A stretch of DNA of 64,000 nt from an uncultured Bacteroidales bacterium. GTDB lineage: Bacteria > Bacteroidota > Bacteroidia > Bacteroidales > UBA7960. Location: assembly GCA_964491395.1 (NCBI GenBank), contig CAZBGI010000014.1:5714-69713 (forward strand). The letters run 5' to 3'. The notes beneath the pieces are model-generated. The model saw nothing but the letters and a program-made list of their open reading frames with translations, ran no database searches and was not told the DNA's origin. Position 1 is the first letter of the stretch. Every line of letters starts with the position of its first letter. Below are positions 40,726 to 57,282 of the stretch, one piece after another. A program made the position numbers and the translations under genes.

Positions 40726-40836
40726 ATCTTTTTTTATCAGATGTATTTTCCGTAAAAATACCCATTGTTGAGCCTGGTTGTTTTTGTATATTTCGCATCT
40801 GTTTTAACAAAGTTGCCGGAGATAAAAACTGAAGCC

Positions 40837-41415
40837 ATGACCAAAACATCCTTTGAACCGCAAAAGATTCTGTTCCCAATGCCTGTAAGCTTAATTGTAA
40901 CAGGGATTCCTGAAAAAGCGAATATTGTCACCATTGCATGGGTGAGTTTGCTCACCAGTGCACCCCCTACTTTAGGGATTTCTGTTGGTTCCAGGGGGTT
41001 TTCAGGAGATGAAATACTGAAAAACAAGCACTTTACGGTTAATATTGCAGGAACGGATATCATGACCGAAGCCGATTATTGCGGCATTACCTCTGGAAAG
41101 GAAGTGGATAAATTTGAAAAAACCGGTTTAACCAAAATTCCCTCCCTTAAAATCCCTTCCCCTATCATCAAAGAATGCCCTCTGAATATTGAATGCCAAC
41201 TGGTGTCTTCCTCTCTTGTGGGAAAGACCCATCATTTTGTTGGTAAAATCCTGCAGGTACATATGGATACCGATAAATTGAAAGATCCGGAAAATCCGGG
41301 TTCTTATATTGCGGAAGCGATGGATCCACTCATATACATGGGAGGAGCAAGAGAATACCGGAAGCTGGGTGAAAAAATTGGAGATGCTTACAGTATTGGG
41401 AGAAAATTGGGTTAA
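40837..41415 (+). CDS. Flavin reductase-like FMN-binding protein
   Basis: FPMPVSLIVT, NIVTIAW, FTVNI, DYCGITSG..DKF and IKECPLNIEC. Confidence 0.88.
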   Translation: MTKTSFEPQKILFPMPVSLIVTGIPEKANIVTIAWVSLLTSAPPTLGISVGSRGFSGDEILKNKHFTVNIAGTDIMTEADYCGITSGKEVDKFEKTGLTKIPSLKIPSPIIKECPLNIECQLVSSSLVGKTHHFVGKILQVHMDTDKLKDPENPGSYIAEAMDPLIYMGGAREYRKLGEKIGDAYSIGRKLG

Positions 41416-41575
41416 AAAGCATTGGTTTTAGGCCTGGTCAGATGAAAAATCTGTCAAGAGGAGATTGAGGGTGTTTTGTGGATGAAGTTGAAAAAACAAC
41501 TTGGTGTATATTTTATGACTGTGTATCAATAAAAAATATAAATTTGTATTATTAATAATCAATTAAGCCTGACAA

Positions 41576-42151
41576 ATGGACGAAAATGGAAACAGGTTTC
41601 TTTCTGACAAGGATCTTTGGCTATTGATAGCGCAAAGTTCGGTTGGAGATTCTTACAGACCCCTAAATTTGCGTGGAGCTGTTCTTAGTGGTGCCCAATT
41701 AGCCGGTGCTGATTTGTCGGGTGCCAATTTTTCAAAAGCCGATCTGAGAGGTGCCAACCTGCAGGGCGCCAACCTCTCCGGAGCATTTCTGGCCAATGCC
41801 GATTTAAGCAATGCCAACCTTGTGGGGGCAACTGTGGACGGTGCCGTGTTGGCAGGTGCCAATCTGAGTCATGCAAATGTAAATGAGGCCGATCTTTCGG
41901 ATACCAACCTGGCAGATGCTGATTTGACAAAAATATCTGCAGTCAATTGTGATTTTACCCGCTCTGATCTTTCGCAATGCATTATCCGGTATGGGGAACT
42001 TACACGTGCCAATTTGCTCAAAGCCAATCTTTCCGGAGCAGATCTGACTGGAGCTGATGTGCTGGAAGCCAATTTTGCCCGCACCTATTTCAATGATACT
42101 GTAATGGAGGGCATCATAAATCTGGAGCGGGCCGTGGGATATAAGGGTTGA
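41576..42151 (+). CDS. Pentapeptide repeat protein
   Basis: Tandem A(D/N)LxG-type pentapeptides (GADLS, GANLQ, NADLS...). Confidence 0.92.
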   Translation: MDENGNRFLSDKDLWLLIAQSSVGDSYRPLNLRGAVLSGAQLAGADLSGANFSKADLRGANLQGANLSGAFLANADLSNANLVGATVDGAVLAGANLSHANVNEADLSDTNLADADLTKISAVNCDFTRSDLSQCIIRYGELTRANLLKANLSGADLTGADVLEANFARTYFNDTVMEGIINLERAVGYKG

Positions 42152-42195
42152 GATCAGGCCAACGTTTTTGGTTGAGTTTGAGGTAGTGAGTGAGG

Positions 42196-43029
42196 CTAAG
42201 GTTTAGGATGGGGTTGGTTTTGGCGCAGCTGTTTTTGAAGCTTCTTGGTTTTTCTTTTTTCTTTCAGGAGTTCAATATTGAGTGCGGCAGTTTTTTGTTT
42301 CCATTTTTTTGATTCTTCTTTACTATCCTCCTTTTCTTTTTCCAGTAAGATGCAGTTACCCAGTATTTCAAACCCTTGAATAATCTGAGGATTTTTCCGG
42401 GTTAGACTGATAAGTTCAGTGATTGGTTCCGGGGGATTTTTTCCCGCGCATACTACGGCAAGTCCTTCGCCAGCGTGAAATTCAAGAACAGTATATTTTT
42501 CCCTGATTTCTTCCATTAGTTTCCACACTTCAAATCCGGGTCTTCTTACTTTCGTATCATGCAACAGAATAATGCCCTCATTACTCATTTTAGGCAACCA
42601 ACTGTAAAAGTCATTTTCAGCGGCTTCATAGGTATGTGTCCCATCAATGTGCAAAACATCAATTGTCCCCTCTGAAAAGTTATTCACTGCTCTGTCAAAC
42701 TCCATCTGTAACAGGGTGGAGAAACCGGCAAATTCTTTTTGATTGATTTCGCTAACCCGCCGGTATACTTCTCTCCCGTATCTCCCCACATGCATATCTC
42801 CCTGCCAGGTATCTACTGCAAAGCATTGCGTGGTTAGGTTGAGCGCTTTTCTGGCCTGGCAAAAGGCAAAATACGAGTTCCCACTGTAGGTACCCAATTC
42901 AACCAGCAATCGGGGTTTTACCTGTTCCATCAGCCAGAAAGCAAATGGGATATGGATAATCCAGCCATGAGGATTATCGAGAAATTGAGGCTTGCTAAGG
43001 AAATAATTTTTAGACGTAGCTAAAAGCAT
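42196..43029 (-). CDS. Class I SAM-dependent methyltransferase (Methyltransf_24-like) with a C-terminal coiled coil
   Basis: LVELGTYSGNS, AVDTWQGD, IDVLHIDGTHTYE and LLHD, followed by a Lys/Glu-rich tail. Confidence 0.85.
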   Translation of the reverse strand: MLLATSKNYFLSKPQFLDNPHGWIIHIPFAFWLMEQVKPRLLVELGTYSGNSYFAFCQARKALNLTTQCFAVDTWQGDMHVGRYGREVYRRVSEINQKEFAGFSTLLQMEFDRAVNNFSEGTIDVLHIDGTHTYEAAENDFYSWLPKMSNEGIILLHDTKVRRPGFEVWKLMEEIREKYTVLEFHAGEGLAVVCAGKNPPEPITELISLTRKNPQIIQGFEILGNCILLEKEKEDSKEESKKWKQKTAALNIELLKEKRKTKKLQKQLRQNQPHPKP

Positions 43030-43364
43030 TTTACTGACAGATTGTTGTGTTATTTTAATTGTCCATAAAAATAAGAATAATAAGCTTTTCGGAAGCTACG
43101 CTTGTGTCAGAACCTTTGTTTATACAAATAAAATCAGTAGTGTCAGGTAAAATCATTGGTTGTTCCCCGAAATGCCTGTGTTTATGCCATCCCTGCGGGA
43201 TTAAGGACAGAGGGCAATACTATATGCCTATGAACATTTTACTCCTGCGAAGTTTAAAAACGCTGTTGCAAGGAGGAGTCCCCAGTGAGGTCCACAGGAA
43301 CGGAACATTTTAACCGGACAACCATGATATAAAATAAAAAAAACAGCATGAAATAAAAATGTAT

Positions 43365-43390
43365 TAAGGGTTTTGTGGGTCAGAACTGTC
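43365..43390 (+). promoter_or_regulatory. Putative ECF-sigma promoter TAAGGGT-N14-CTGTC (copy 1)
   Basis: TAAGGGT tttgtgggtcagaa CTGTC, 73 nt before ATG 43464. Same boxes and spacing as the copies at 55116 and 55830. Confidence 0.75.
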
Positions 43391-43463
43391 TGATATAGTG
43401 AACCAAAAAAATAATTAAGTGTTTAAATCATTTGTTGTCAAACATATCTCAAATCTTCCTACA

Positions 43464-46400
43464 ATGAAAAAACTATTAACGATTTTGATCTCGCTGGCGA
43501 GTTTATCGCTTTGGAGCCAATCCCATGAGATAGCTCCTGAATATTATGAAAAGCGGATCCAGGAACGCAACCAAAAGCTATCTGAAAAGGGACAGTCTCC
43601 CTTGAATACTTCATTGAATGGTAACTCCCTTCACTACCAAACCCGGTCAGGGAAGGGTGCTGCTGCCCTGAATATGGATAAAAATAATACGGCTGAAGGA
43701 GAGTGGTTAATCTGGAACAATGGTGAATACAGCAATGCCCTGGGAGGACCGGAAAACTTTGTTTTTGATGTGGCCGCACGGTTTGAGCCTTCTGACTTGA
43801 CCAATCTGTCCGGCTATCAGGTATCTTCAGTGAGTATTGTTCCCGGTGATATGGCAGATTTTACACTGAAGATTTGGCAAGGACAAAATTCACCCCAGGA
43901 AATTTACTCCCAGGCTATTGATTCCATTTTACCTAACCAGGAAAATGTAATAGACCTTGATATGCCTGTCTTGATAGATGCAAGTCAGGACCTGTGGATA
44001 GGTTACCAGGTTTCCGGTACAAATGTTTATCCGGCAGGAGTTGACTCCGGGCCGGCTGTTACCGGAAAGGGTGATATGATAAATTTTGATGGAGTATGGT
44101 ATTCTCTTAACGATGAATTTTTCCTGAATTACAACTGGATGATAAGCGCATGGGTTGAACCTGCTGCTGATCCTGAAGCACCAGCAGCTCCCTTGCAATT
44201 AACTGCCACGGCAGATGAAAACGGTGAACTCATTGTTGACCTTGCCTGGAACAATCCATCCGTAAACTTTGAGGGGGGGGCGCTGGATGAATTGGATAAC
44301 ATCCTGATTTATCGGGGAGAGACTTTGCTGCAAACCATCAATGATCCTGTTATTGGCGGAAGCGAAAGTTTTACCGACGAGGGTATTGAATCTTCAGGTA
44401 CTGTCTCCTATGCTGTTGTGGCTGAAAACCAGAATGGCCAGGGACCCACGGCTCTCGCCTCCGTTTTTGCAGGGCCCGATGTTCCTGATGCTCCTTCCAA
44501 TGTTGTCCTCATCGCAGACGACAACAATGCTGTTGTTAGCTGGGATGCACCCCAGGAGGGTTTAAACGGGGGGGTTGTTAATCCTGCTCTTATGACTTAT
44601 ACTTTGGTAAGAATGCCTGATTCCGTGATGGTAGCACAGGATATTTCTTCTACTTCTTTTACCGACAGCTCAATCCCCGGAGCAGGAAATTACTTTTACA
44701 GGGTTACGGCCTTTAATGATCAGGGCGAGGGCGGCACTTCGGTATCCAATGTTACTTCGTTGGGACTGGAGGGTTTGCTTTACGCTGAAACTTTCGATTA
44801 TCAACCCGGCCCATTACCTGCTGGATGGGAATTAACAGGGGCGTCGCACCACTGGGAAATTTCTCACTCGGCTGTAGCCGGAGGTGAAACTCCTGAGTTG
44901 AGATTAAACTGGGTGCCGGCAACAACAGGCATAAGCAGGCTGGTGAGTCCTGCAATCGACCTGCAGGATAATGAGGCTGTACGGCTTATCTTTCATCAGT
45001 TCCTGGATAACTTTGCCGCTTCTGACAATGAAAAAATTGCCATGGATTATACTGTTGATGGAGGTGATAACTGGATAACCATCTGGGAGCAGGAACTAAC
45101 CGATGAGGATATTCCCCAGGACGAATACGATTATGTATTTAATGTTCCTTCCGATGTATCTTCCATTCAACTGGGTTTGCGCTTTGAGGGGAATACTTAT
45201 AATATAGACTATTGGCACATTGATAATATAATTATTCAACCATTACTTGACAATGATTTGATGGCTGAAAATATTGCAGGTAATGCTTATCCCGCTGCTG
45301 GTTCGGAGGCCCTATACACTGTTTCCGTGCAGAATGCAGGACAAACAGGCACTGACAATTTCGTTGTCAAACTAATGGGTGAAGGAGAAGTTGAGCTCTC
45401 GTCGGTTTCAGGAGAATTTCTGCAACCTGGTGAAATAGCCGAATTTTCTTTGCCCTGGACTCCCCAGCAAACCGGTAATACTTTTATTTATGGAGTAGTG
45501 GAATTTCCCGATGATGAGAATTCTGTTAACAATACAACCTCTGCGCTGGAAATAGAAGTTTTACCAGAAGGATCTTATGTTGCTCAGGTGGGAACACAGC
45601 CCACTTTTGCTCCAACCAATATTCCTTTTGACTTCTTCTGGAAGACAAGTCTGAGCCAGACATTGTACTATCCCGAAGAGTTGGGACTTACAGGTGGCGT
45701 ACTTACTGCTTTGCAGTACAAGAATGACTTTGAAACCGGTTTGAATGACAAGGAAATAAAAATATGGGTGGGAGAAACCCAGCAAGACAATCTTGTGGAT
45801 GGCTGGTTCGATGTCAATGAATTAATCCTTGTTTTTGAGGGAACAGTGGATTTTCCGGAAGGGAAAAATGATATTTTTATTCCGCTGGATACACCTTATC
45901 CCTACACCGGTGATAATCTTGTTGTGTTTACCAGCAACGAATATGAGGACCAATGGTTAGGATACGGCAACAATTTCTATGCTTCAGCAGATCCCGAGTC
46001 AGCACGCACTATAATAAGAACAGCAGACGAAGTGCTTGACCCTGCAAATCCCGGAACGTTCCATCAGAGCGACTGGTATCCCAATACAACCTTGTTTTTC
46101 TCAACAGAAGGCTTAGGGGGCCTGCAGGGCACCGTATCAGATAATCAGTCAACCCTGGAAGGTGCAGAGGTCAGGTTGGCAGGCACGCAAAGCACGACCT
46201 TAACGGATGAAGAAGGAAACTACCAATTCCCTTATGTTTTGCCAGGCAGCTATGATGTTGAATTTCGTTTGTTCGGCTACTTCTCACAGACTATTGAACA
46301 GGTTGAGATTGTTGTGGATGAAACCACCCAACTGGATGCAACCCTCGAATCCATTCCTCAATATACTGTTTCAGGTTCAGTGGAAGGTAACAATGGGCTG

Positions 46401-49370
46401 ATTCCCGGCAATGCTGTGATTACACTTTCCGGTTATGAGGATTACCTTGCGAATACAGACCAGAATGGTGATTTTACTATAGAAGGTGTTTTTGAAGGTG
46501 AATATACCTTCAGTGTTCTGGCTCCGGGTTACGAATCTTTTACCAATGAATCGCTGCTGGTAGATGGCGATATTGATCTGGGCCAGGTAGTCATTTCAGA
46601 AATTATTCTTACACCGGGTTCCCTTGCTATAGACTATGACAACTTTGGTGCAGGTAATGCCTTGCTTTCGTGGAACATTCCGCTGGGGGAAGAGTTCAGA
46701 TATGATAACGGAACACCCACTACCGCTTTGGGTACCAACAGTATCTCGGACCAGACTATCCTTGGTGTTGCTCACCCCCACAATGCAGAGTTGTTCGAAA
46801 TGTCATGGATATGGGGCAGTGATACCATAGAACAGGCTGTTGAAACGGTCAAAGTCTGGGTGTTTGGATTGAATGAAGAAGGATGGCCCGATCACAATGA
46901 TTTACTCTATTACGCTGATGAGGTTTCCGTAAAGCAGGATGGCGAATGGACAACCTACCAGTTCAGCCAGCCTGTTGATGCACCCAACGGATTCTTCATG
47001 GGTATTGGAGGTGAAGGCTTCCTGGCTTTGGCTGCAGAATTAGGTGAAGATCCTGATTGGCCTTTTGTTCCCAATACGCACTTCTTTAGTGCCGATGCAT
47101 TGTCAGGCAATTTTTCACCGCTTGAACTGTATGGATTCCCCTGGAACTTTTTCATCCGTGCTGTAGGAAATGATTATGGTAGCATCAATATCAAATCTTC
47201 TCAGGAGGCTGGTGAAATGATTGCATCTGAAGGTGAACCAGGATTCTTTGAAAGCCCCGTTCCGGCATCTGCTGGAAATCCTGCATATGCTTCCTTTGAG
47301 AATAAGGCTGCGGGTAAATCAGTAACCGGGTTTAATGTATTTCTTGAAGATATGGAAGAACCGGTAGCCTTTACCGAAGAGCTGGAGTATCTGTTTACTG
47401 AACTGCCCGAAGGAAACCTCACCGCAGGAGTGCAGTCTGTTTATAATACCGGGGTTTCTGAAATAGTAACCATCGATTTTGATTTGGTTTACCCGGTGGA
47501 AGTATCCTTGAATGTTACTGCCAATACAGGCGAGGTTCCTGAAGGGGCAGAAGTGCAGTTGCTAAACGAGCAATTAGAGCAATACTCCTATTCAGGTCAG
47601 ACAGATGCAACAGGGAATATAGAGTTTTCTTCCGTACGCAAAGGACTCTATACTTTGCTGATTTCACTGGAAAACTATGAAACCTATAGTGTGGAGAATA
47701 TTGAAATCCAATCTGACACTGCTTTGGATGCAGAATTGACTGAGCGGTTGGATGCACCTGTAAATCTGATGGTTACCAGAGATGGCCTGGAGCCAGGGCA
47801 GGTTTTGTTCAGCTGGAACAACCCCCTTCATGGATGGAATGAAAGTTTCGAAGATGGGGCCTTTCCCGAAAACTGGAGTCAGATCATTACAAACACCCAT
47901 ACTCAGTCAGGTTATGCCAATACATGGCAGATTGTAGAAACGGTTCCGTTTTCTAATCCGATTGTCCCTCAGGATGGCCAATACCAGGCGTTCATCATGT
48001 GGAGCTTTCTGGAACAGAGTGAATGGCTGATCTCTCCCGAATTTGTTGCTCCTGCCGGTGACCTGGTTTTCTGGTATCATGGTACAAACGGCTCCGATTT
48101 TGGGGACAACTATTACGTGAAAATCTCACAGGATAATGGGGATACATGGGATATTTTATGGAATGCAAGTGATCTGCCTTATGGGGTGAACAATTACACG
48201 GACTCCGTAGCTATTGATTTATCTCTCTATGCAGGAAACAATGTCCGTCTGGCCTGGCATGCAGATGATGGATCCAATGGAACAGGCTTGTGGAGCACAT
48301 GGGCGATTGATAACATTTCTGTGGGAGACCAATCCATGGATTTGAAAAACTTTGTTGCCGGTTTTCCCGGAAAGAATCGCCCTTTGGAAAACGTTGAAAA
48401 GAATGGCCATGCTTTGAATTATAATGTGTTTTTTGATGGTGATCTGATGGCAGAAGGAGTTTCTGATACGCAAATCCTGTTCAACGATGTTGCCGAAGGA
48501 AGCCATACGGCAGCAGTGCAGGCAGTTTACGCTACCGGTGTTTCCGAAATTGTGCCCATGGATTTTACCCTTAGTCAAACGTTCTTGTTAAGTCTGGTGT
48601 CCGATCCTGCCGGTAGTGGTTCACTGAGTGGATCAGCATGGTACAGTGAAGGTACAAAGGTGCTGATTAATGCTTCACCCAATGAAAACTATATGTTTTC
48701 CAACTGGACAACACAGGAAGGAGAAATCATCAGCGAAGATCCTTCGTTCTTCTTCACGATGCCGGGCAACGATGTTGTGCTCTCCGCCAATTTTGTGGAA
48801 GCAGAACAATACAACGTAACCTTTAACATTGATATGACCAATGCTTCTGTTTTCAATCCCTTCCAGGAAGATGTGGCACTTACAGGTTCTATGCATGACT
48901 GGGCTGTTTTGGGTACCAATCACCGAAACCAGGTGATGGCAGGTAACCATGAAACCATGGTTTACTCCAAGACATTCCTGATGGAACCCGGCGTGTATTC
49001 CTACAAATACTTCCTTAATGAAGGAGAGCATGAACATGAATGGGAAGAGGGTGATAACCGCGAGATTTTTGTAGAGAGTGACATGGAAGTTTTCGATGTT
49101 TGGGGCGTCCAAACGCCAACTCTTATCACAGAAACGGACTTATCAGAAACTACCCGTATTTTCCCCAATCCTTTCAATGATTTCATTGAAGTGACCGGAG
49201 CCGAAAAAAACAGCAGACTTATTATAACCAACATTCTTGGAGAGATAATCATGGATGAAATACTAACCACAAACCGCTTGAATACTTCTAACCTGCAACC
49301 TGGTATTTATGTGATTTATCTTGAAAACGATGATGGGAAAAGAGATGTGCGTAAATTGATAAAACAATAA
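43464..49370 (+). CDS. Large multidomain T9SS type-A cargo (FN3, cleaved-adhesin/choice-of-anchor-J-like, CARDB, carboxypeptidase-regulatory, InlB-B-repeat-like, CBM-like)
   Basis: Signal peptide MKKLLTILISLASLSLWS, FN3 motifs, ESFEDG..P..W..EWLISP, and C-terminal RIFPNPF..ITNILGE..LQPGIYVI..KLIKQ. Confidence 0.85.
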   Translation: MKKLLTILISLASLSLWSQSHEIAPEYYEKRIQERNQKLSEKGQSPLNTSLNGNSLHYQTRSGKGAAALNMDKNNTAEGEWLIWNNGEYSNALGGPENFVFDVAARFEPSDLTNLSGYQVSSVSIVPGDMADFTLKIWQGQNSPQEIYSQAIDSILPNQENVIDLDMPVLIDASQDLWIGYQVSGTNVYPAGVDSGPAVTGKGDMINFDGVWYSLNDEFFLNYNWMISAWVEPAADPEAPAAPLQLTATADENGELIVDLAWNNPSVNFEGGALDELDNILIYRGETLLQTINDPVIGGSESFTDEGIESSGTVSYAVVAENQNGQGPTALASVFAGPDVPDAPSNVVLIADDNNAVVSWDAPQEGLNGGVVNPALMTYTLVRMPDSVMVAQDISSTSFTDSSIPGAGNYFYRVTAFNDQGEGGTSVSNVTSLGLEGLLYAETFDYQPGPLPAGWELTGASHHWEISHSAVAGGETPELRLNWVPATTGISRLVSPAIDLQDNEAVRLIFHQFLDNFAASDNEKIAMDYTVDGGDNWITIWEQELTDEDIPQDEYDYVFNVPSDVSSIQLGLRFEGNTYNIDYWHIDNIIIQPLLDNDLMAENIAGNAYPAAGSEALYTVSVQNAGQTGTDNFVVKLMGEGEVELSSVSGEFLQPGEIAEFSLPWTPQQTGNTFIYGVVEFPDDENSVNNTTSALEIEVLPEGSYVAQVGTQPTFAPTNIPFDFFWKTSLSQTLYYPEELGLTGGVLTALQYKNDFETGLNDKEIKIWVGETQQDNLVDGWFDVNELILVFEGTVDFPEGKNDIFIPLDTPYPYTGDNLVVFTSNEYEDQWLGYGNNFYASADPESARTIIRTADEVLDPANPGTFHQSDWYPNTTLFFSTEGLGGLQGTVSDNQSTLEGAEVRLAGTQSTTLTDEEGNYQFPYVLPGSYDVEFRLFGYFSQTIEQVEIVVDETTQLDATLESIPQYTVSGSVEGNNGLIPGNAVITLSGYEDYLANTDQNGDFTIEGVFEGEYTFSVLAPGYESFTNESLLVDGDIDLGQVVISEIILTPGSLAIDYDNFGAGNALLSWNIPLGEEFRYDNGTPTTALGTNSISDQTILGVAHPHNAELFEMSWIWGSDTIEQAVETVKVWVFGLNEEGWPDHNDLLYYADEVSVKQDGEWTTYQFSQPVDAPNGFFMGIGGEGFLALAAELGEDPDWPFVPNTHFFSADALSGNFSPLELYGFPWNFFIRAVGNDYGSINIKSSQEAGEMIASEGEPGFFESPVPASAGNPAYASFENKAAGKSVTGFNVFLEDMEEPVAFTEELEYLFTELPEGNLTAGVQSVYNTGVSEIVTIDFDLVYPVEVSLNVTANTGEVPEGAEVQLLNEQLEQYSYSGQTDATGNIEFSSVRKGLYTLLISLENYETYSVENIEIQSDTALDAELTERLDAPVNLMVTRDGLEPGQVLFSWNNPLHGWNESFEDGAFPENWSQIITNTHTQSGYANTWQIVETVPFSNPIVPQDGQYQAFIMWSFLEQSEWLISPEFVAPAGDLVFWYHGTNGSDFGDNYYVKISQDNGDTWDILWNASDLPYGVNNYTDSVAIDLSLYAGNNVRLAWHADDGSNGTGLWSTWAIDNISVGDQSMDLKNFVAGFPGKNRPLENVEKNGHALNYNVFFDGDLMAEGVSDTQILFNDVAEGSHTAAVQAVYATGVSEIVPMDFTLSQTFLLSLVSDPAGSGSLSGSAWYSEGTKVLINASPNENYMFSNWTTQEGEIISEDPSFFFTMPGNDVVLSANFVEAEQYNVTFNIDMTNASVFNPFQEDVALTGSMHDWAVLGTNHRNQVMAGNHETMVYSKTFLMEPGVYSYKYFLNEGEHEHEWEEGDNREIFVESDMEVFDVWGVQTPTLITETDLSETTRIFPNPFNDFIEVTGAEKNSRLIITNILGEIIMDEILTTNRLNTSNLQPGIYVIYLENDDGKRDVRKLIKQ

Positions 49371-49387
49371 GTCTTAGCTGTTTTACC

Positions 49388-49419
49388 AAAGGCTGCTTCT
49401 TGATTGGGGCAGCCTTTTT
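49388..49419. terminator. Bidirectional terminator between the two convergent T9SS cargo genes
   Basis: AAAGGCTGCTTC-ttgatt-GGGGCAGCCTTTTT. Confidence 0.85.
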
Positions 49420-49420
49420 C

Positions 49421-52400
49421 TTACGGTGCAATACTAAAGAGAAAAACCTCCCTGGAGTCTCCTGAAATCAGTGTAAGAACATAATTTCCCGGAAGAAGGT
49501 GCCCGACATGAAAGGTTTTCTGTAAACCTGTCAATGCTACTTTTTGTTTCAAAACAGGTTGCCCTGCCATGTTGTGAATTTGTGCTTCCATCACTTCTCC
49601 ATCTGAAAAAGAAGGACCAAAAACTGTGAGTTTATCTCTTGCCGGATTGGGATACAAAATCATCTCACCTGGCGCAGGGTTATCCTCCGGAATAACAATG
49701 TTGATTTTCAGAGCTTCTTTAATGCTGAGGGATACACTTTCAATGACTTCCTGCTGGGGAGTAATGTGCAATGGCAGGGAAGGTAGTGACTCGAAGCCGG
49801 CCATTTCTACCTCAAGGATGTAGGTTCCGTAAGGAAGATGGGTAAAGGAGAAGTTTCCATGGACATCGGTGAGTGTATGCCCGTATATCTTTTTACCGCT
49901 CAGGCTATACAAAAGAATACTGATATTGGAGAGTCCGCCGTTGCAAAACTCATCTTGGGAGTCTGAAAACCACGGTTGACAATATACATCTTTATCATCG
50001 GGGTGCAACTTAGGCAAGGCAAAATGTCCGCGGATGGTCCCGTTTCCGGAAGGGAATGATGTGTTAAGAGCGGGAATCCGGATGTCTATTCCATATGTAT
50101 TGCCTGTAAGATCGTGGATGTAAGCCTTCTCCCACCGGCTTTGCTCAACATAGTAGGATGGAAGTTGATTGTTTTCAGGCAGCGTATCGGAAGGAACATA
50201 CAGAATGTATTCACCCCTGAAAAGTCTGTCAAACCTAAATACCCCCTTATCATCAGTCCAGGTAAGAAATCGGGTAGGGAGTTCCGTGGGGTCGTCTTCC
50301 ATCAGAAATGCAACCACCGGGTTACCGCTAACCGGGTTATGATCGTACCACAGACTTCCCTCTATACTGTAAGCCGGCCGTATGAAAATTGTAACCGTAT
50401 CTCTGACGGTTTCGCAGTACCGGGAAAAAATTGTAAGTACAAGATTTATCTGTTGCCGGTTAATATCTTCAGGGCCGGGCGTGTAATCGGTGAGGATGCT
50501 GTCGGGATGGCTAAACACTCCATCTCCTGAACTTTCCCACTGAATGGAGTCCTCATGCAGTGCGTAAGCTTCTGAGGTGTTGAAGGTGTCTTCAGGAGCG
50601 ATAAAACTGTTTTTGCCTGCATAAGCTAACGGTAATGGTGCAAAAGATAAGAGAAATTCATCATACACAACCTGTTCTCCCTTCTGGGCACTGAGCCGAA
50701 GAACTACACTTCCGGATGCCCGGTCTTCTTCTCCGGGAAAATATGCAGGGCTTACATGCTCAGGATTGGAAAATGAACCATCACCAGAGGTTGTCCATGA
50801 AAATTCGTCCCATGATGCAGGAACATGGCCATGTTCTATGTTAAAGACTTCAACATCTACGCAGAGAGTAGTGTCGGTTCCTGCATAAGGTATGGCGCTG
50901 GCCAGGGCATAGGGGCTTTTGTTGCCGTCTGATTGGTCTTTGTTTTTATTATAATCCTGGTCATAAGCAGCTATACCTATGGTGCCTGTAGTATCTTCAG
51001 GAAGGAAAAACACCGTGTCTGTAAGCAATTCAGTGGAATCACTGAAGCTGTAATGGGAGAATTCTCCATAAAAGACTCTGTAGCCCAGCAGATCCGATTC
51101 AGGATTAGCTCTCCAGCTTAACCGAACAGAACCCTCAACGATCTGTTTTACAAAACCTGAAGGAGCCGAAACAGGAGCTTGCGTGTTGGCTTGCTCCAAT
51201 ATAGGCTTATAGTCCAATACTCCCAATGCAGGGTCATTAGAAAAATCATACAGAAGTTTTTCGATGATGCTGTCTTGGGTAGCCTCCCAGTAGGAATGGC
51301 TGATATTAATATCAAAAGGGGTTAAATTTTTAACAATGGCTGTATCTTTGCGGTTACGAAAAATATTGTTTCCTGAAAACAGCACATTCTGGCCTGCCAG
51401 AAAGGTAATTACATCTTCATCATTTCCGGTAAATGTATTTTCTCCAATAGCAATGTCGCTGGAGTTGTTTCTGAACATGATGCCCATTTTATTTTCATAG
51501 ATGCTGTTGTTGTGAAAATATGAATCACCGGTTGAAACAAAAGCGGCTGCCGTGGTATTGCGCCAAAAAATATTATGACTGATAAAGGTAGAATCCATGG
51601 AGTTGTAGATTCCGAATCCATCGTTGTCATTGCCGTTATTAATGATGATGTTTCTGCTGATATGGGTGTGGGCTGATGTCCCCAGATTAGAGCTGAACAG
51701 CCAGACTCCTTGCTGGCTGTTCTTAATGAGGTTTTCCTCCACTACATTGTGATAGCAGTAACCATGATTGTTGCTTTGAATACTGATATTGGTAATAAAG
51801 TTGCTGAATGTATTGCCGGCAATTGTATTGAAAGATGCCTGGTTTCCATTGCCCGTTGCATAAATCTCAACACCAATAAAATTATCCGTGAATAAATTCG
51901 CGCTTACATTCCAGTTGGAGCTGTTGGTCAGACTGACTCCGATAAAAAACACATCGCTGATAAGGCTGTTGGTAAGAGAAACATAATGTGCGTTCTGCCC
52001 TGTGATTCCTTTTACAGCATTTTTTATTACCACATAGTCGAACACAACATCGTCGGGGTTGTCGATGGCGCTTAAAGTTATCCCGTTCCAGTTCCAGGTT
52101 TCACCTTCACCATGATTGGGCAGCAAGCGGATGCTGTCAGTTTCGTTTCCCACCATAGAAAGGTTTCCTCCTTCCACATTGATTCCTCTTCCCTGCGAAA
52201 ATACAATGGTAGTACCGGCTTGCACCTGAAGAGAAGATCCGACCGGGACGGTAATATTATTGGCTACCCAGTAAATATTATCAGCCGTCCAGAAAGCAGA
52301 ACCATTTAATACCCCTCCAACTTCGATTATCGGTATATCTTTTTTGGTTTTTTCAACCTCTGAAGCAAATGAAGCACACTGCCCCATCAGGGCGACAACA

Positions 52401-52468
52401 ACCATACCGCCCTTTAGTAAGCTCATAAGTAGGCTCGTGAAAAAAGATAAGATGGTTTTGGTGTTCAT
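49421..52468 (-). CDS. T9SS type-A cargo with right-handed beta-helix, FN3, Ig/PKD-like and carboxypeptidase-regulatory-like domains
   Basis: Asn-rich parallel beta-helix repeats, LSWRANPESDLLGYRVFY (FN3), two W.(T/S)SGDG.FS repeats, and C-terminal LYPNPA..IHNMAGQ..PGNYVL. Confidence 0.82.
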   Translation of the reverse strand: MNTKTILSFFTSLLMSLLKGGMVVVALMGQCASFASEVEKTKKDIPIIEVGGVLNGSAFWTADNIYWVANNITVPVGSSLQVQAGTTIVFSQGRGINVEGGNLSMVGNETDSIRLLPNHGEGETWNWNGITLSAIDNPDDVVFDYVVIKNAVKGITGQNAHYVSLTNSLISDVFFIGVSLTNSSNWNVSANLFTDNFIGVEIYATGNGNQASFNTIAGNTFSNFITNISIQSNNHGYCYHNVVEENLIKNSQQGVWLFSSNLGTSAHTHISRNIIINNGNDNDGFGIYNSMDSTFISHNIFWRNTTAAAFVSTGDSYFHNNSIYENKMGIMFRNNSSDIAIGENTFTGNDEDVITFLAGQNVLFSGNNIFRNRKDTAIVKNLTPFDINISHSYWEATQDSIIEKLLYDFSNDPALGVLDYKPILEQANTQAPVSAPSGFVKQIVEGSVRLSWRANPESDLLGYRVFYGEFSHYSFSDSTELLTDTVFFLPEDTTGTIGIAAYDQDYNKNKDQSDGNKSPYALASAIPYAGTDTTLCVDVEVFNIEHGHVPASWDEFSWTTSGDGSFSNPEHVSPAYFPGEEDRASGSVVLRLSAQKGEQVVYDEFLLSFAPLPLAYAGKNSFIAPEDTFNTSEAYALHEDSIQWESSGDGVFSHPDSILTDYTPGPEDINRQQINLVLTIFSRYCETVRDTVTIFIRPAYSIEGSLWYDHNPVSGNPVVAFLMEDDPTELPTRFLTWTDDKGVFRFDRLFRGEYILYVPSDTLPENNQLPSYYVEQSRWEKAYIHDLTGNTYGIDIRIPALNTSFPSGNGTIRGHFALPKLHPDDKDVYCQPWFSDSQDEFCNGGLSNISILLYSLSGKKIYGHTLTDVHGNFSFTHLPYGTYILEVEMAGFESLPSLPLHITPQQEVIESVSLSIKEALKINIVIPEDNPAPGEMILYPNPARDKLTVFGPSFSDGEVMEAQIHNMAGQPVLKQKVALTGLQKTFHVGHLLPGNYVLTLISGDSREVFLFSIAP

Positions 52469-52480
52469 GTTATTTGATGG

Positions 52481-53821
52481 TTAGAAATAATATAACACTC
52501 CAAGTCTGATGCCTCCACCGTGAATTCTACGTTCCAGGGGATGATTCTGATTCCATGCAGTGAAATACCTGCGGTACCATGTTTCAGCAAAAATATCGCT
52601 GATGGCACTTAACCTGATTTTCGCTCCTAATCCACCCGACCAGGCCAGTACCCATGGAGAGAAATTGTTGCGGTTAACATAAACAGCAGGAAAGCCTTCC
52701 GTGTTTTCCACGCTTTGGGCATTCAGCCAAAGAGGCGTACTGGCATGGAAATTTCCCCGGGCATACCCCACAAAGTTGCGGCCGGCATAAAAATCCCACG
52801 ACAGAGCCAGGCTGGTTTCCACAAATCCCATCCGGTTCATCCTTTCATAAAAGATCTCCTGGCTTTCCAGGGGGATGTAAGTGGTATCGGTAATATGGGT
52901 CCAGATGGTGTCGTTTTGCTGAATCACAAAGAAGGAGTCCAGCGTATCAATTTGATTAAATCCTCCGGTGGAAAAAAGTTCTGAATAATTGAATCTGTGC
53001 GCAAAACTATTGATAGCAAGCCCTGCAATAACAGACACACTACCGGTATTGTATTGCAGGGAGGCACCCAACCCAAAGTTTCTCACAGAAAATGCATCTG
53101 CCTGGTTAATCTTTTCCAGATCCGGTGTGAGCGAAGGATTGCCGGTAAATTGATATTCGGTCATCATTTGGGTCAGGGCTATGCCGAAGGCCCATCGTTC
53201 ACGCCCATTGACTTCCACGCCCAGCAGATCGCGAACCAGTGTTTCGGGCCGGGTAATTTCACTCTGAGGCTGACGTTCAATAAAAACGGTATCTATGATT
53301 AATTGCTCTTCAACCTGGATTACCGTATCCCGGATAAATATTGTATCATATACAATCACAGTGTTGGAATAGGTAGAGGGAAGAGAATCTGAAAGTTGCC
53401 ATTGCCGGGGAGCAGGGGCAGGTTTACTTGTGGGCGAAGAGGATGTCATTGCCTGGGCAGGGGGCGGTCTTCGGGTTTTTTCTGTAGCCTTTAGGATAAT
53501 GAGATGATTGCCAGACTCCCTGAATTCATGTCCGTTTTGGGTGAGAATTTCCCTTAGTATGACCATGGGTGTTTTACCCGAAGCAGAGTAATTTATCAAT
53601 ACATCAAAAACATCTTCTGATGCATTGTAGGTAATATTTATATTGTGATGTGCAGAAAGCCTGTGAAGAACAGATTTTAGGGGTTCATTGCGGGCTTCAA
53701 ATTCAATGGGGTTTTGTTGATTCTTTGATAATGCTGTTTCAGGGCTAACAGGAAGCAGCAGGAAAAGAATAAACAGACCTGGAACAAAACTAAACGAATG
53801 AAATCTTTGGTTATCACTCAC
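52481..53821 (-). CDS. STN signalling domain plus small outer-membrane beta-barrel protein
   Basis: Signal peptide, STN-like segment (EPLKSVLHRLS..NITYN..ILREIL..EFRESGNHLII), Pro-rich linker, and about 8 amphipathic strands ending GGIRLGVLYYF. Confidence 0.7.
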   Translation of the reverse strand: MSDNQRFHSFSFVPGLFILFLLLPVSPETALSKNQQNPIEFEARNEPLKSVLHRLSAHHNINITYNASEDVFDVLINYSASGKTPMVILREILTQNGHEFRESGNHLIILKATEKTRRPPPAQAMTSSSPTSKPAPAPRQWQLSDSLPSTYSNTVIVYDTIFIRDTVIQVEEQLIIDTVFIERQPQSEITRPETLVRDLLGVEVNGRERWAFGIALTQMMTEYQFTGNPSLTPDLEKINQADAFSVRNFGLGASLQYNTGSVSVIAGLAINSFAHRFNYSELFSTGGFNQIDTLDSFFVIQQNDTIWTHITDTTYIPLESQEIFYERMNRMGFVETSLALSWDFYAGRNFVGYARGNFHASTPLWLNAQSVENTEGFPAVYVNRNNFSPWVLAWSGGLGAKIRLSAISDIFAETWYRRYFTAWNQNHPLERRIHGGGIRLGVLYYF

Positions 53822-54055
53822 GATCTTAAAGTTTTAATTCCCAAAACAAGTTTTAATTTTTCAGTTTTTGCGCATAACAACAAATCAACCACCCGATAGA
53901 ATATATTGTTTAGCGAATGATTAATTATTATGAAATGAACCTTTAGCCTTGTATTCCACCCTCAATTGTATCAGCACTGAACCTGCCTGCCATACATAAC
54001 AATGGCAGGATACCCTGAGGATATCCTGCAATAACGATGGGAAGGTTGGAGTAGC

Positions 54056-55069
54056 TCAATGGGCTACAACATAAGTATTATGTTCTTTTTCAATGGTTAC
54101 ATCAAAAAGAATTTCCAGGGAGTTGAAAATATCTTCTGGTTTTTCATTGATAAATCGTGCTGTAAGTTTTTGATCCTCAATTTCTGAGGCCCATTTAATG
54201 TCGATATAATAAGCTTTGCTGATATCGCTTAAAACATCGGTTAGAGGTGTTTCCACAAACTCCAGTTTGCCGGTTTTCCATGCCATGAAGTTATAATTAT
54301 CAATAGGTTCCCTTGTAAAAGCTTGCGAACTGGGTTTCCAGGTCACTTTCTGATCTGCTGAAAGAGTAATGGATTCCCCGGATTCTGTTTCCAGGATTAC
54401 TTTTCCTGAGAGTACTGCCAATTCAATATTTCCTGTGTTGTGGTCTTGCAAAATATTGAAAGAGGTTCCCGGTACAATTACCCTGGCACCTTCAAGTTCA
54501 ATAATGAAAGGGTATTGGTCATAAGTATTTACATCAAAAAATGCATTTCCTTCGAGGCTCACTCTGCGCTGATCTTTGGAAAATTCAGCAGGATAATTCA
54601 GGGTTGCCTTACCGTTAAAAAACACGGTGGTCCCATCATTAAGCAGAATAGAGTCAGTGGTGGTGGGTTGTACATTCTCATAACTCAGTAGCTGGTTTTT
54701 CTGGTTCTGAAAAATCATGAAAAATACTCCTGATATAATAATCAGCATGGCAGCTATGCCTGAGAGAAGGTATGCACGGTGCTTAAAACTGGTGTTTAGC
54801 GGAATGATTTTGTTATGTGATTCATCGGATTGTTGTTCGTACGCATCTATTTTTTGATTGATTCGTTCCCAGGCCAGTTTTTTGTTAATGGTAATTTCTG
54901 GGGCCTGTGCAGGAGAGGTTTGCCATATTTTTTGATATTCTTTAAAAAATTCAAGATGGTTTGCAGAGGATTCCAACCAGGCTTGCAGTTCTTTTTTTTC
55001 ATTGTCGGTGGCTTCCCCTGCAAGCACCCGGGTGATGAGCAAATTGTATTTTTCTGATATGTTTTCCAT
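54056..55069 (-). CDS. FecR-family anti-sigma factor
   Basis: N-terminal GEAT..E..ELQAWL, a TM segment, LNDGTTVFFN..LNYP..F...R.V.LEGNAFFDV, GTSFNI and AWKTGKL.F..TPL. Confidence 0.93.
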   Translation of the reverse strand: MENISEKYNLLITRVLAGEATDNEKKELQAWLESSANHLEFFKEYQKIWQTSPAQAPEITINKKLAWERINQKIDAYEQQSDESHNKIIPLNTSFKHRAYLLSGIAAMLIIISGVFFMIFQNQKNQLLSYENVQPTTTDSILLNDGTTVFFNGKATLNYPAEFSKDQRRVSLEGNAFFDVNTYDQYPFIIELEGARVIVPGTSFNILQDHNTGNIELAVLSGKVILETESGESITLSADQKVTWKPSSQAFTREPIDNYNFMAWKTGKLEFVETPLTDVLSDISKAYYIDIKWASEIEDQKLTARFINEKPEDIFNSLEILFDVTIEKEHNTYVVAH

Positions 55070-55115
55070 GGTAATCGTTGTATGGGTGTTTTATTGTTGC
55101 AGTGTTAATACTACT

Positions 55116-55141
55116 GACAGTCTTGTTGATGAATACCCTTA
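55116..55141 (-). promoter_or_regulatory. Putative ECF-sigma promoter TAAGGGT-N14-CTGTC (copy 2, upstream of fecR)
   Basis: Minus strand TAAGGGT attcatcaacaaga CTGTC, 46 nt before the fecR ATG. Confidence 0.75.
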
Positions 55142-55210
55142 GTGGCTTGAATAAAATTTTTGATATTGTTTGTTACGGTATAGATTTACCGGCTGCACCT
55201 GATTTTGTGG

Positions 55211-55783
55211 TCAGGCTGCTCCTGTAATCAGCATCAGCAGCAGAACCAGATAATCCTTCAGGTATTTTCTGAGGTGCTCCAGCGCAGCACTAAGATGTGC
55301 CTCGACGGTTTTAACAGATATATCCATCTTGCTGGCAATATCAGCATAGGATAATCCGTGGCTACGGCTGTATTCATATACCATTCTGCGTTTGGGAGAC
55401 ATGGTTTCCATCCCCATGGCTACCAGGGCTTTGATTTCTTTTTGATGGATGTCGGAAGTATACGCTTCCGATGAAATCGCTTTTCCCAGCTCCTGTTTGC
55501 GATGACTTAATCTTACCTTCAGGTGTTCCTGATGATTGATGATCTTGTTCAGTGCCATGCGGTATAAGTATGATTTGAGTGAAGTCGTTATTTTCAACTC
55601 ATCTCTCTTGACCCACAATTTTACAAAGATGTCCTGTACAATTTCTTCGGCCTCTTCCTGGTTGCCTGTCCTGATGGTGCAGTAACGGGAAAGAGGTTCG
55701 TACCAGGTCTGGAAGATTTCTTCAAAAATGCGCCTGTCTCCTTTGCGTAAACCTTCCATGAGATGGATGTTTTCGGGCTCCAT
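55211..55783 (-). CDS. ECF RNA polymerase sigma factor (Bacteroidota FecI-like)
   Basis: AEEIVQDIFVKLW, SLKSYLY and LSYADIA..MDISVKTVEAHL, with a hydrophobic C-terminal tail. ATG 55783 is chosen because TTG 55849 lies inside the promoter motif. Confidence 0.93.
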   Translation of the reverse strand: MEPENIHLMEGLRKGDRRIFEEIFQTWYEPLSRYCTIRTGNQEEAEEIVQDIFVKLWVKRDELKITTSLKSYLYRMALNKIINHQEHLKVRLSHRKQELGKAISSEAYTSDIHQKEIKALVAMGMETMSPKRRMVYEYSRSHGLSYADIASKMDISVKTVEAHLSAALEHLRKYLKDYLVLLLMLITGAA

Positions 55784-55829
55784 GCTGAATAGTGGGTTAT
55801 GTTGAATTTGGTTTAATTGGCTTATGAGT

Positions 55830-55855
55830 GACAGTTCAGAGGGGGCCAACCCTTA
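55830..55855 (-). promoter_or_regulatory. Putative ECF-sigma promoter TAAGGGT-N14-CTGTC (copy 3, autoregulatory)
   Basis: Minus strand TAAGGGT tggccccctctgaa CTGTC, 46 nt before the sigma ATG and directly after the pepT terminator. Confidence 0.75.
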
Positions 55856-55869
55856 GTCTGCCTACCCGC

Positions 55870-55920
55870 AAAAACAAAAACAGGCTGTATCAGAAAGCTT
55901 CACCTGCCTGATACAGCCTG
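55870..55920 (-). terminator. pepT terminator
   Basis: 13-bp inverted repeat CAGGCTGTATCAG/CTGATACAGCCTG followed by TTTTTGTTTTT on the minus strand. Confidence 0.85.
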
Positions 55921-55942
55921 CTGAGTCTATCAGGAGGATAGA

Positions 55943-57172
55943 TTATTGTTTGGCGTACAATTCAATGATTTTTAATATCACCTTTGTCGCTTTCTCCATG
56001 CTCTCCAATGGGATAAATTCATATTTACCGTGGAAATTATGGCCTCCGGCAAATATATTGGGGCAGGGAAGGCCCATGTAGGAAAGTCTCGAACCATCTG
56101 TGCCTCCACGGATGGGTTTGATGTTGGGTTTAATGCCTACTTCTTTCATAGCCTCACTGGCAATTTCTACAATATGATAGACAGGCTCTACTTTTTCGCG
56201 CATGTTGTAGTACTGGTCTTTCATTTCAACTTTCAGGGTGCCTTCTCCATGTTTTTTGTTGATAAAGTCTGCTGCCTCCCGGAATAGTTTTTTGCGGTTT
56301 TCAAACTTTTGCCTGTCGTGGTCTCTGATGATGTATTGCAATACAGACTCTTCTACTGTGCCATCAAATTTGATCAGGTGAAAGAATCCTTCATAGTGTT
56401 CGGTAAATTCAGGACGGTCAAACACAGGTAGCATATCGTTGAACTCGCTACCCACAATCATAGAGTTGACCATTTTGTTTTTAGACATTCCCGGATGGAC
56501 ATTGCGTCCCTGCACCATGACTTTGGCATAAGCGGCATTGAAGTTTTCAAATTCCAGTTCACCTACTTCTCCTCCATCCACGGTATAGGCATATTGGGCA
56601 CCAAATTTTTTCACATCAAAATGATCTACTCCTTTTCCGATTTCTTCATCGGGGGTAAAGCCAATCTTGATGGTTCCGTGTTTTATCTCAGGATTTTGGG
56701 TCAGGTATTCAATGGCGGTCATTATTTCTGCTATTCCGGCTTTGTCGTCGGCTCCCAGCAAGGTAGTGCCATCTGTGGTTATCAGAGTTTGACCCACATA
56801 TTTTTTAAGTTCAGGAAAGTCGGCAACTTTCAGAAACATCTGCTTCTCATGGTTGATAAGAATATCTTCACCATCATAATCTTCCACGATGTTGGGTTTT
56901 ATGTCTGCTCCAGACATGTCCGGGGCTGTATCCACGTGTGAAAGAAACCCAATTACAGGCACTTCTTTGTCAATATTGGAAGGCAGAGTAGCCATTACAT
57001 AGCAGTTCTCGTCTACATGGGCATCTTCAAGACCCATTTCCCTGAGCTCTTCTACCAGCACCCTGGCCAGGTTAAACTGTTTTTTTGTGCTTGGAAAAGT
57101 CTGGGAAGTAGGATCAGCCTGTGTATCGATGCCGATATACTTGTAAAATTTTTCTAACAATGTTTGTTTCAT
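55943..57172 (-). CDS. pepT: Peptidase T (tripeptidase, M20B)
   Basis: [36 protein letters not shown] and GGHNFHG. Confidence 0.96.
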
Positions 57173-57282
57173 AATATATCAGGAGTTAAGGTGAAGGTTC
57201 AGGCCGGGAAATGACAGATGAGTATTTTGTTTTTCTCCAACCTGAACCTGCAATGTTTAAAAATACAAATTATCTTTAAGAA

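Follow-up and report, generated by a model that had tools for sequence, protein, structure and literature searches.

Genes and motif copies of the locus

The DNA analyzed here, referred to as the window, is a 64-kb stretch of a genome of an uncultured Bacteroidales bacterium (G000:C14:5714-69713; the genome comprises 4.06 Mb in 183 contigs). [quoted passage not shown] Copies of a bipartite motif, TAAGGGT-N14-CTGTC, lie upstream of three of these genes. This motif, and the predicted circuit in which it would serve as the promoter of the sigma factor, are the subject of this study.

The sigma gene (55211..55783, minus strand) encodes a Bacteroidetes-type ECF (group 4) sigma factor of 190 aa, which was recognized with both Pfam and NCBIfam. 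The protein matched Sigma70_r2 (2.9e-11), Sigma70_r4_2 (9.3e-14) and Sigma70_ECF, and its score against NCBIfam TIGR02985 (Sig70_bacteroi1), 142.7 bits compared to a cut-off of 126.4, places it in this subfamily. The adjoining fecR gene (54056..55069, minus strand) encodes a transmembrane protein of 337 aa with the FecR (PF04773, 1.5e-10) and FecR_C (PF16344, 4.7e-08) domains; the two domains and the position next to the sigma gene identify it as a FecR-type anti-sigma factor. Residues G201-T202 of this protein are invariant in an alignment of 20 sequences. They may be the counterpart of the G181/T182 site at which E. coli FecR is described as self-cleaving (PMC12036975), as judged by a positional match that comes only from the offset of the NCBIfam FecR match.

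The 446-aa protein (52481..53821, minus strand) is described below. Downstream of its gene lies the gene for the 1015-aa protein (49421..52468, minus strand), a right-handed beta-helix T9SS protein with a CarboxypepD_reg domain (Pfam NosD, Beta_helix, Por_Secre_tail; NCBIfam TIGR04183). The 1968-aa cargo protein (43464..49370, plus strand) is built of Ig-like/beta-sandwich repeats and matched Pfam CARDB, CarboxypepD_reg (three times), Flg_new_2 and Por_Secre_tail, as well as NCBIfam choice_anch_J and TIGR04183. There was no catalytic domain among its domain matches, and by its domain content it looks like an adhesin. When the sequences of both large cargo proteins were compared with solved structures, the only results were a titin Ig stretch, for the 1968-aa protein, and a marginal match. 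No gene for a SusC-like protein, SusD or another TonB-dependent transporter was found in the gene cluster of the window.

An exact pattern scan of the window recovered three copies of TAAGGGT-N14-CTGTC, as stated in the initial annotation of this DNA. One lies upstream of the sigma gene (55830..55855, minus strand), one upstream of fecR (55116..55141, minus strand), within the 141-nt gap between sigma and fecR, and one upstream of the 1968-aa cargo gene (43365..43390, plus strand). The sequence and the list of open reading frames (ORFs) also bore out the annotation in that each of the three copies lies between genes and points in sense orientation at the gene that follows. From the end of the copy to the ATG there are 46 nt for both sigma (55783) and fecR (55069), and 73 nt for the cargo gene (43464).

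The recurrence of the motif is far above chance, as had been supposed: its expectation in dinucleotide-preserving shuffles of the window was 0.02, the largest number of copies in a single shuffle was 1, and none of 100 shuffles reached 3. The annotation had counted twelve fixed bases. All of these recur, and an ungapped comparison showed that the copies share one base more, an A before CTGTC, which gives TAAGGGT-N13-ACTGTC. The copies are alike only in the boxes and in this A, so the spacing of the boxes is fixed and the sequence of the spacer is free. Since the spacers and flanks of the copies are unrelated, the motif does not represent a dispersed repeat or a repeat family.

The sigma copy begins ∼15 nt downstream of the intrinsic terminator of the upstream M20 peptidase gene (55871..55920, minus strand), in which a U-run comes after a stem of 16 bp (-29 kcal/mol, z = -5.2; none of 200 shuffles was as stable). 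A second stable hairpin (54005..54029, minus strand; -20.2 kcal/mol, z = -3.2), which was listed as terminator-like, lies 27 nt after the fecR stop codon. It lacks a clean U-run and is conserved in a related genome (G002). No motif or promoter of the 446-aa gene itself was found by the motif scan and an alignment of five upstream regions. Because a hairpin follows fecR and no motif precedes the 446-aa gene, the sensor genes may be expressed independently in this genus. Consensus scans of positions 49200-56100 remained at shuffle level, both for sigma-70-type promoters (14 promoter-like sequences compared to 15.1 expected) and for terminators (6 terminator-like sequences compared to 6.8 expected). 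A search for RNA sequencing runs over positions 46100-56000 listed none.

Genome-wide specificity and conservation of the motif

A scan of both strands of the whole genome identified only four copies of the full motif, i.e., the three copies of the window and one on another contig (G000:C60:13808-13833, minus strand). The fourth copy is intergenic, in sense orientation, and located 186 nt before the gene of a 1187-aa S8 subtilase that is unlinked to the window. This protease, like the 1015-aa and 1968-aa proteins, carries the C-terminal sorting domain (Por_Secre_tail / TIGR04183) that marks T9SS cargo. All four genomic sites thus face the next gene, at distances of 46, 46, 73 and 186 nt. This is the opposite of the random distribution, or of the dispersed repeat, that would have spoken against a promoter. 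It also modifies the earlier description of the regulon as local, which holds for the three linked sites and fails for the unlinked one before the protease gene.

With a weight matrix constructed from 11 sites, the four genomic copies scored 30.4-38.4 bits, and the best score elsewhere in the genome was 16.0; the four copies belonged to the training set, and the informative part of this result is the gap beneath them. The shortened pattern AGGGT-N14-CTGTC, which had been proposed for a scan of the genome, turned out not to be specific (10 matches compared to 8 in a reversed control), and only the full-length motif stands out. Variants with one mismatch occur 16 times in the genome, which by our own arithmetic is roughly the level of uniform chance. 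One of them, TAAGGGA-N14-CTGTC (G000:C90:1908-1933, minus strand), is located 274 nt before the gene of a secreted protein with repeated 'QIIHNSADA' motifs, and exact motifs lie upstream of the orthologues of this gene in two related genomes, at 272 nt in G014 and at 387 nt in G022. The site is listed only as a candidate fifth member of the regulon, because one-mismatch sites are at chance level genome-wide.

A search with the 446-aa protein retrieved loci in two related metagenome-assembled genomes, with 76% (G001 = G018) and 71% (G002 = G014) identity. In G002, all three positions (sigma, fecR and cargo) have retained the boxes within surrounding DNA that has diverged, and an exact motif lies 191 nt upstream of the S8 protease orthologue. 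G001 likewise has the boxes before sigma and fecR, at 46 nt from the ATG in both cases, and at 75 nt before the giant gene, and TAAGGGT-N15-CTGTC is found 193 nt upstream of the protease orthologue. The G001 genes are split between two contigs. The sigma/FecR pair lies on contig C133, between an M20 peptidase gene and ychF, and the cluster of the 446-aa, beta-helix and giant cargo genes lies on contig C198, behind unrelated genes. The presence of the motif despite this split means that it follows the genes and not the neighborhood. In the same genome, the sigma-fecR unit is closed, ahead of ychF, by a hairpin that carries a T-run and is homologous to the one downstream of fecR in the window (L025:2530-2575). 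These comparisons, made at 62-76% protein identity, gave what the annotation had asked for as a check, i.e., boxes conserved at orthologous positions within diverged flanks.

The motif before the giant gene is conserved in G001, G002, G022 and G011, both where this gene is convergent and where it is co-directional with the cassette (G022, 68 nt upstream) or located on another contig (G011, 72 nt upstream). A variant (..ATGTC) lies 42 nt upstream of the giant gene in G012. The earlier proposal that the cargo gene is tied to the sigma/FecR circuit is supported by this persistence of the boxes before the giant gene, even where the gene lies on a separate contig.

Across three genomes, the 73-nt leader between the motif and the start of the cargo gene (43391-43463, plus strand) is far better conserved than the DNA that precedes the motif. 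It folds no better than its shuffles (z +0.8). The leader of the giant cargo gene may hold a binding site or add a further level of control.

The occurrence of the motif was then compared with that of the FecR orthologue. A FecR homologue search across 41 related genomes led to 26 places. At all seven loci with 38-100% identity, TAAGGGT-N14-YTGTC was found before fecR and/or sigma, and 17 of the 19 loci with identity of 33% or lower had no match to the loose pattern. The two exceptions were L045 and L033, the latter a true cassette of another family with a drifted motif. Within the genus (22 genomes, grouped by protein homology and not by the motif), the seven genomes with a FecR orthologue contained 21 exact motifs (4, 3, 5, 1, 4, 3 and 1), compared to 8 in the reversed control, and the 15 genomes without the orthologue contained 3, compared to 9 in the control; no p-value is claimed for these counts, as the genomes are kin. 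The three stray motifs of the latter group were located inside an ORF (one) and near contig ends (two).

The STN-barrel protein and the cassette in other families

The 446-aa protein by itself matched no Pfam or NCBIfam family above threshold and gave only a sub-threshold match to FecR_C. Its family comprises 112 representatives (E ≤ 1e-3) among 1.84 billion, whose source names are 'hypothetical protein' or 'opacity protein-like surface antigen'. Pfam matches among 68 members were STN (51), OMP_b-brl_2 (27), FecR_C (25) and OMP_b-brl (14). An AlphaFold2 model based on 6 sequences was poor (predicted local distance difference test, pLDDT, of 55), and the use of 68 sequences raised the mean pLDDT to 82. 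The protein starts with a signal peptide, and the latter model consists of an STN domain (residues ∼39-111, pLDDT 96-98), a low-confidence linker of ∼90 residues (∼112-205) and a beta-barrel (∼210-445, pLDDT 94-98). The best solved neighbors of this model in Foldseek were a porin, OmpA, OmpW, Ail, OpcA and autotransporter barrels. In the model, the protein is thus an STN domain on a small outer-membrane beta-barrel.

A TonB-dependent transducer, defined by an STN domain, a TonB box, a plug and a 22-strand barrel in a protein of ∼800-1100 aa, was considered as an identity of the 446-aa protein and rejected. The protein has the STN domain and a small barrel only, with no plug and no 22-strand barrel. 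Residues ∼155-185 of the linker contain conserved repeats of the type DT[IV]x[IV] (DTIFI at 159, DT at 165 and DTVFI at 177). D177 is invariant in the 68 family members, each of which has 2-6 DT[IVLFM] motifs in residues 100-230. The repeats occupy the place that the TonB box has in transducers, and the TonB-box sequence of Bacteroidetes differs from them; a TonB-box-like role is a lead only.

A complex of FecR residues 125-337 with STN residues 33-115 was modelled with a score of 0.78, compared to 0.00 for the best control. Three runs agreed in 100% of the contacts and the pLDDT of the partners was at least 89. The modelled interface places FecR 272-322 against STN 49-110. In a calibration, 58 of 80 solved complexes and 2 of 110 mismatched pairs attained this mark, counts that hold only roughly here because our own alignments were used. 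The model is consistent with the 446-aa protein being the likely input device of the circuit.

The distribution of the protein was analyzed with a hidden Markov model of the 446-aa family in 401 genomes of the order (E ≤ 1e-20). Matches were found in 80 genomes. About twenty were full-length, and the others covered only the barrel or only the STN part, the latter within proteins of the size of TonB-dependent receptors (880-1200 aa). No full-length relative was found in a phylum-wide sample of 400 other genomes (E ≤ 1e-40, with 4 candidates scored per genome). A comparison of 18 neighborhoods of the matches revealed a recurrent gene order in several families: sigma, FecR, STN-barrel, a ∼1000-aa beta-helix T9SS protein and a 1000-2700-aa T9SS protein. 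The beta-helix T9SS architecture followed the STN-barrel gene in 7 of the 8 other cassettes scanned, the giant and beta-helix proteins of other cassettes also carry T9SS sorting domains, and all 20 FecR homologues of the cassettes have both the FecR and the FecR_C domain. As the intergenic gaps are short, the fecR, STN-barrel and beta-helix genes of these other families probably form one sigma-dependent operon.

A core of the motif, GGGT-N15/16-TGTC, was searched on both strands of 25 loci (342,369 nt). It matched 50 times, 42 times in intergenic regions and 8 times in ORFs. The core was present before fecR in 18 of 23 loci with a fecR start, 22-53 nt from the ATG, and also in G001. Before sigma it was present in all five loci of the genus in which the region was included in the scan, and again in G001. 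The most widely conserved position of the motif is therefore the site upstream of fecR, and not the one upstream of sigma. The core also preceded the giant gene or the next cargo gene in most loci, and the beta-helix gene in one.

In other families, a drifted form of the motif, TA(A/G)GGGT(A/T)AA...TGTC, is found in the sigma-fecR gap and ahead of the genes for the giant cargo proteins, and the form found in family f4 is TAGGGTAAAA...TTGTC. The consensus of 36 aligned intergenic sites consists of an A-tract, ∼13 nt, TA(A/G)GGGT(A/T)AA, ∼12 nt and TGTC(t/a)T, with the A-rich tract ∼17-22 nt upstream of GGGT. At one locus (L100, genome G291), the fecR promoter (1989-2014) and the promoter of a 2519-aa giant gene (7896-7921) are identical over 27 nt including the spacer, which suggests a recent copy or a strong constraint.

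Assignment of the motif, proposed circuit and related systems

Taken together, these data make it likely that the ECF sigma factor of the window (55783..55211) reads TAAGGGT-N14-CTGTC as its -35/-10 promoter. Such a role, as the bipartite promoter of this sigma factor, had been put forward in the initial annotation, and it is supported by the conservation at orthologues, the co-occurrence with FecR and the drifted versions in other cassettes. The strict sense orientation, the short distances to the start codons, the upstream terminator and the upstream A-tract all fit a promoter, and so do the persistence of the motif after genome rearrangement and its drift in parallel with the cassette.

Several observations weigh against this assignment. 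The comparative counts come from related, non-independent genomes, and the motif was defined post hoc from the window. The boxes are unlike the textbook ECF consensus GGAAC / CGTC. The genome holds other ECF sigma factors and three FecR genes, and the predicted link to this particular sigma factor is drawn solely from linkage and co-occurrence. No core motif was found before fecR in 5 of the 23 loci (L106, L112, L113, L114 and L117). Outside the genus, it was found upstream of sigma at none of 10 loci where the sigma ORF was recovered, so autoregulation of the sigma gene is not general. In this genus, no motif precedes the 446-aa gene or the 1015-aa gene, and a stable hairpin lies between these two genes and fecR. 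In G001, the 446-aa and beta-helix genes are unlinked from sigma/FecR, which weakens both their membership in the regulon and the linkage argument for a partnership of STN and FecR. Finally, solved structures of STN/anti-sigma complexes exist, and the complex model may therefore have passed by likeness; what it shows is a likeness to the known STN/anti-sigma interface and not the binding of this pair.

Three other explanations of the motif were weighed. It is scarcely credible that the copies recur by chance or are functionless remnants of a mobile element or of dispersed repeats. In favor of this view, the motif was picked only once it had been seen, and both the shortened pattern and the one-mismatch variants are at background in the genome; however, none of the shuffles reached three copies, all four genomic copies are intergenic and in sense orientation, similarity does not extend past the boxes, and the conservation of the boxes at orthologous positions within diverged flanks effectively refutes chance. 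The boxes could also act in an RNA leader, through stability, translation or attenuation, with transcription starting further upstream. The unusual conservation of the giant cargo leader downstream of the motif and the distance of some sites from the start codon (190-450 nt) would agree with this, but there was no match to an Rfam family in positions 42000-57500 (E ≤ 1) and the folding of the three leaders is no more stable than that of their shuffles (z +0.8, -1.5 and +1.3). Conservation is confined to the two short boxes, the spacer varies freely and compensating changes are absent, and little upstream transcription should reach the sigma copy past the strong terminator directly before it. 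We consider an action in RNA very unlikely.

The most serious alternative is that the motif is a real regulatory site read by another sigma factor or by a DNA-binding regulator, with the sigma/FecR pair as its target. Nothing in the analysis singles out this sigma factor as the protein that contacts the motif, other sigma/FecR pairs and other ECF sigma factors are encoded in the genome, and outside the genus the sigma gene has no upstream motif. On the other hand, exact motifs are at background in the genus members without the FecR orthologue and enriched in those with it, the one constant position of the motif across families is inside the sigma-fecR unit, and the motif drifts along with the cassette proteins, from TAAGGGT..CTGTC in this genus to the form of family f4. 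An asymmetric, strictly oriented motif with fixed spacing would also fit a sigma factor better than a dimeric regulator. A different reader of the motif thus appears unlikely, and the promoter of the ECF sigma factor remains the preferred interpretation.

In the circuit that we propose, the FecR-type anti-sigma factor (55069..54056) would hold the sigma factor at the inner membrane. Once released, the sigma factor would transcribe its own gene and fecR from two separate promoter copies, giving positive and negative feedback, as well as the convergent 1968-aa T9SS gene and the unlinked gene of the S8 T9SS protease. Transcription would start a few nucleotides after CTGTC, with predicted leaders of ∼40 nt (sigma and fecR), ∼65 nt (giant cargo) and ∼180 nt (protease). 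The input device would be the 446-aa STN-barrel protein, whose periplasmic STN domain would dock on the C-terminal domain of FecR, so that it would stand where the TonB-dependent transducer stands in FecA-FecR-FecI signalling. This protein, possibly with the surface-exposed beta-helix T9SS protein, would sense an envelope or extracellular cue. STN would then act on the C-terminal domain of FecR, FecR would be processed, with G201-T202 as the candidate site, and the sigma factor would be freed.

We propose only tentatively, as a view somewhat less probable than its opposite, that the cassette as a whole constitutes a previously undescribed type of surface signalling, in which a non-TonB-dependent STN-barrel acts through FecR, the sigma factor and the motif on giant T9SS proteins and a protease; the beta-helix protein may be an extracellular sensing partner and the DT[IV] repeats may engage a force or a partner.

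The proposed circuit shares several features with the FecI-FecR-FecA type, as known from the E. coli Fec system and the SusC-like transducers of Bacteroidetes. An ECF sigma factor adjoins an anti-sigma factor with the FecR and FecR_C domains, the partner has an STN domain that was modelled on the C-terminal domain of FecR, and in most cassette families the predicted sigma-dependent promoter would drive genes other than sigma. The invariant G-T pair of FecR may correspond to E. coli G181/T182. In contrast to Fec, the STN domain belongs to a 446-aa small-barrel protein without a plug or 22-strand transporter, the cassette has no SusC/SusD or transporter gene, the predicted outputs are giant T9SS surface proteins and a protease instead of an uptake system, and in this genus a separate promoter copy precedes sigma and fecR, respectively. 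The FecR cleavage cascade and the role of TonB are treated in PMC12036975. The canonical arrangement in Bacteroidetes, rpoE-fecR linked to susCD, is described in PMC13472631, which also gives -7/-33 motifs for the housekeeping promoters of Flavobacteria.

As in the autoregulated ECF promoters of RpoE and SigW, the motif is bipartite with fixed spacing, is in sense orientation, lies upstream of sigma and of regulon genes, and would be followed by a short leader; the apparent autoregulation is seen in this genus. Unlike those promoters, its boxes are (T)AAGGGT and (C)TGTC and not of the GGAAC / CGTC type, and it is unusual to find a further promoter between the sigma and anti-sigma genes. As general background on FecI-like sigma factors of Bacteroidetes, Casas-Pastor et al. 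(2021; PMC7826278) state that experiments had dealt with none of the members of group ECF240.

An ECF sigma factor has been connected with type IX secretion in Bacteroidota in the case of PorXY-SigP (PMC7712824, PMC4800418, PMC12152298). In that system, as these sources describe it, a two-component system drives the sigma factor and the targets are genes of the T9SS machinery, whereas here the sigma factor is paired with FecR and with an STN-barrel protein, and cargo genes are its predicted targets. PorX and PorY were not seen in the cassette, in an analysis that included no search aimed at them. In full-text searches of the literature, neither an STN-barrel/FecR/ECF cassette nor a FecR-linked sigma factor controlling T9SS cargo was found. 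The motif was not found there either, in searches that did not use its letters, and the per-group logos of PMC7826278 could hold a similar one. The predicted promoter is a new example of a known ECF type, and the cassette is a new form of FecR-type surface signalling.

Bacteroidota carry very many ECF sigma/FecR pairs, and for one of them the present analysis supplies a sharply defined predicted promoter and a regulon of four promoters that is directly testable by reporters. It also points to a compact, conserved cassette in which STN has moved from a nutrient transporter to a small barrel and the predicted output consists of secreted surface proteins and not of uptake genes. If the proposed circuit is correct, FecR surface signalling would not need a TonB-dependent transporter, and the sigma/promoter pair would provide an orthogonal tool for the genetics of Bacteroidota and a handle on the regulation of giant T9SS adhesins.

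The composition of the cassette varies between genomes. At one locus (L067, G013:C7), the sigma, FecR, STN-barrel and beta-helix genes are followed directly by pentapeptide, flavin-reductase and photolyase-related genes, which correspond to positions 39229-42151 of the window. Compared with positions 39229-43029 of the window, the giant cargo gene and a methyltransferase gene (42196-43029) are missing at that position in G013. At two loci of genus g43 (L115 and L116), the place of the beta-helix gene after the STN-barrel gene is taken by a gene for an 839-aa RCC1-repeat beta-propeller, and the partner or output module of the cassette appears to be exchangeable.

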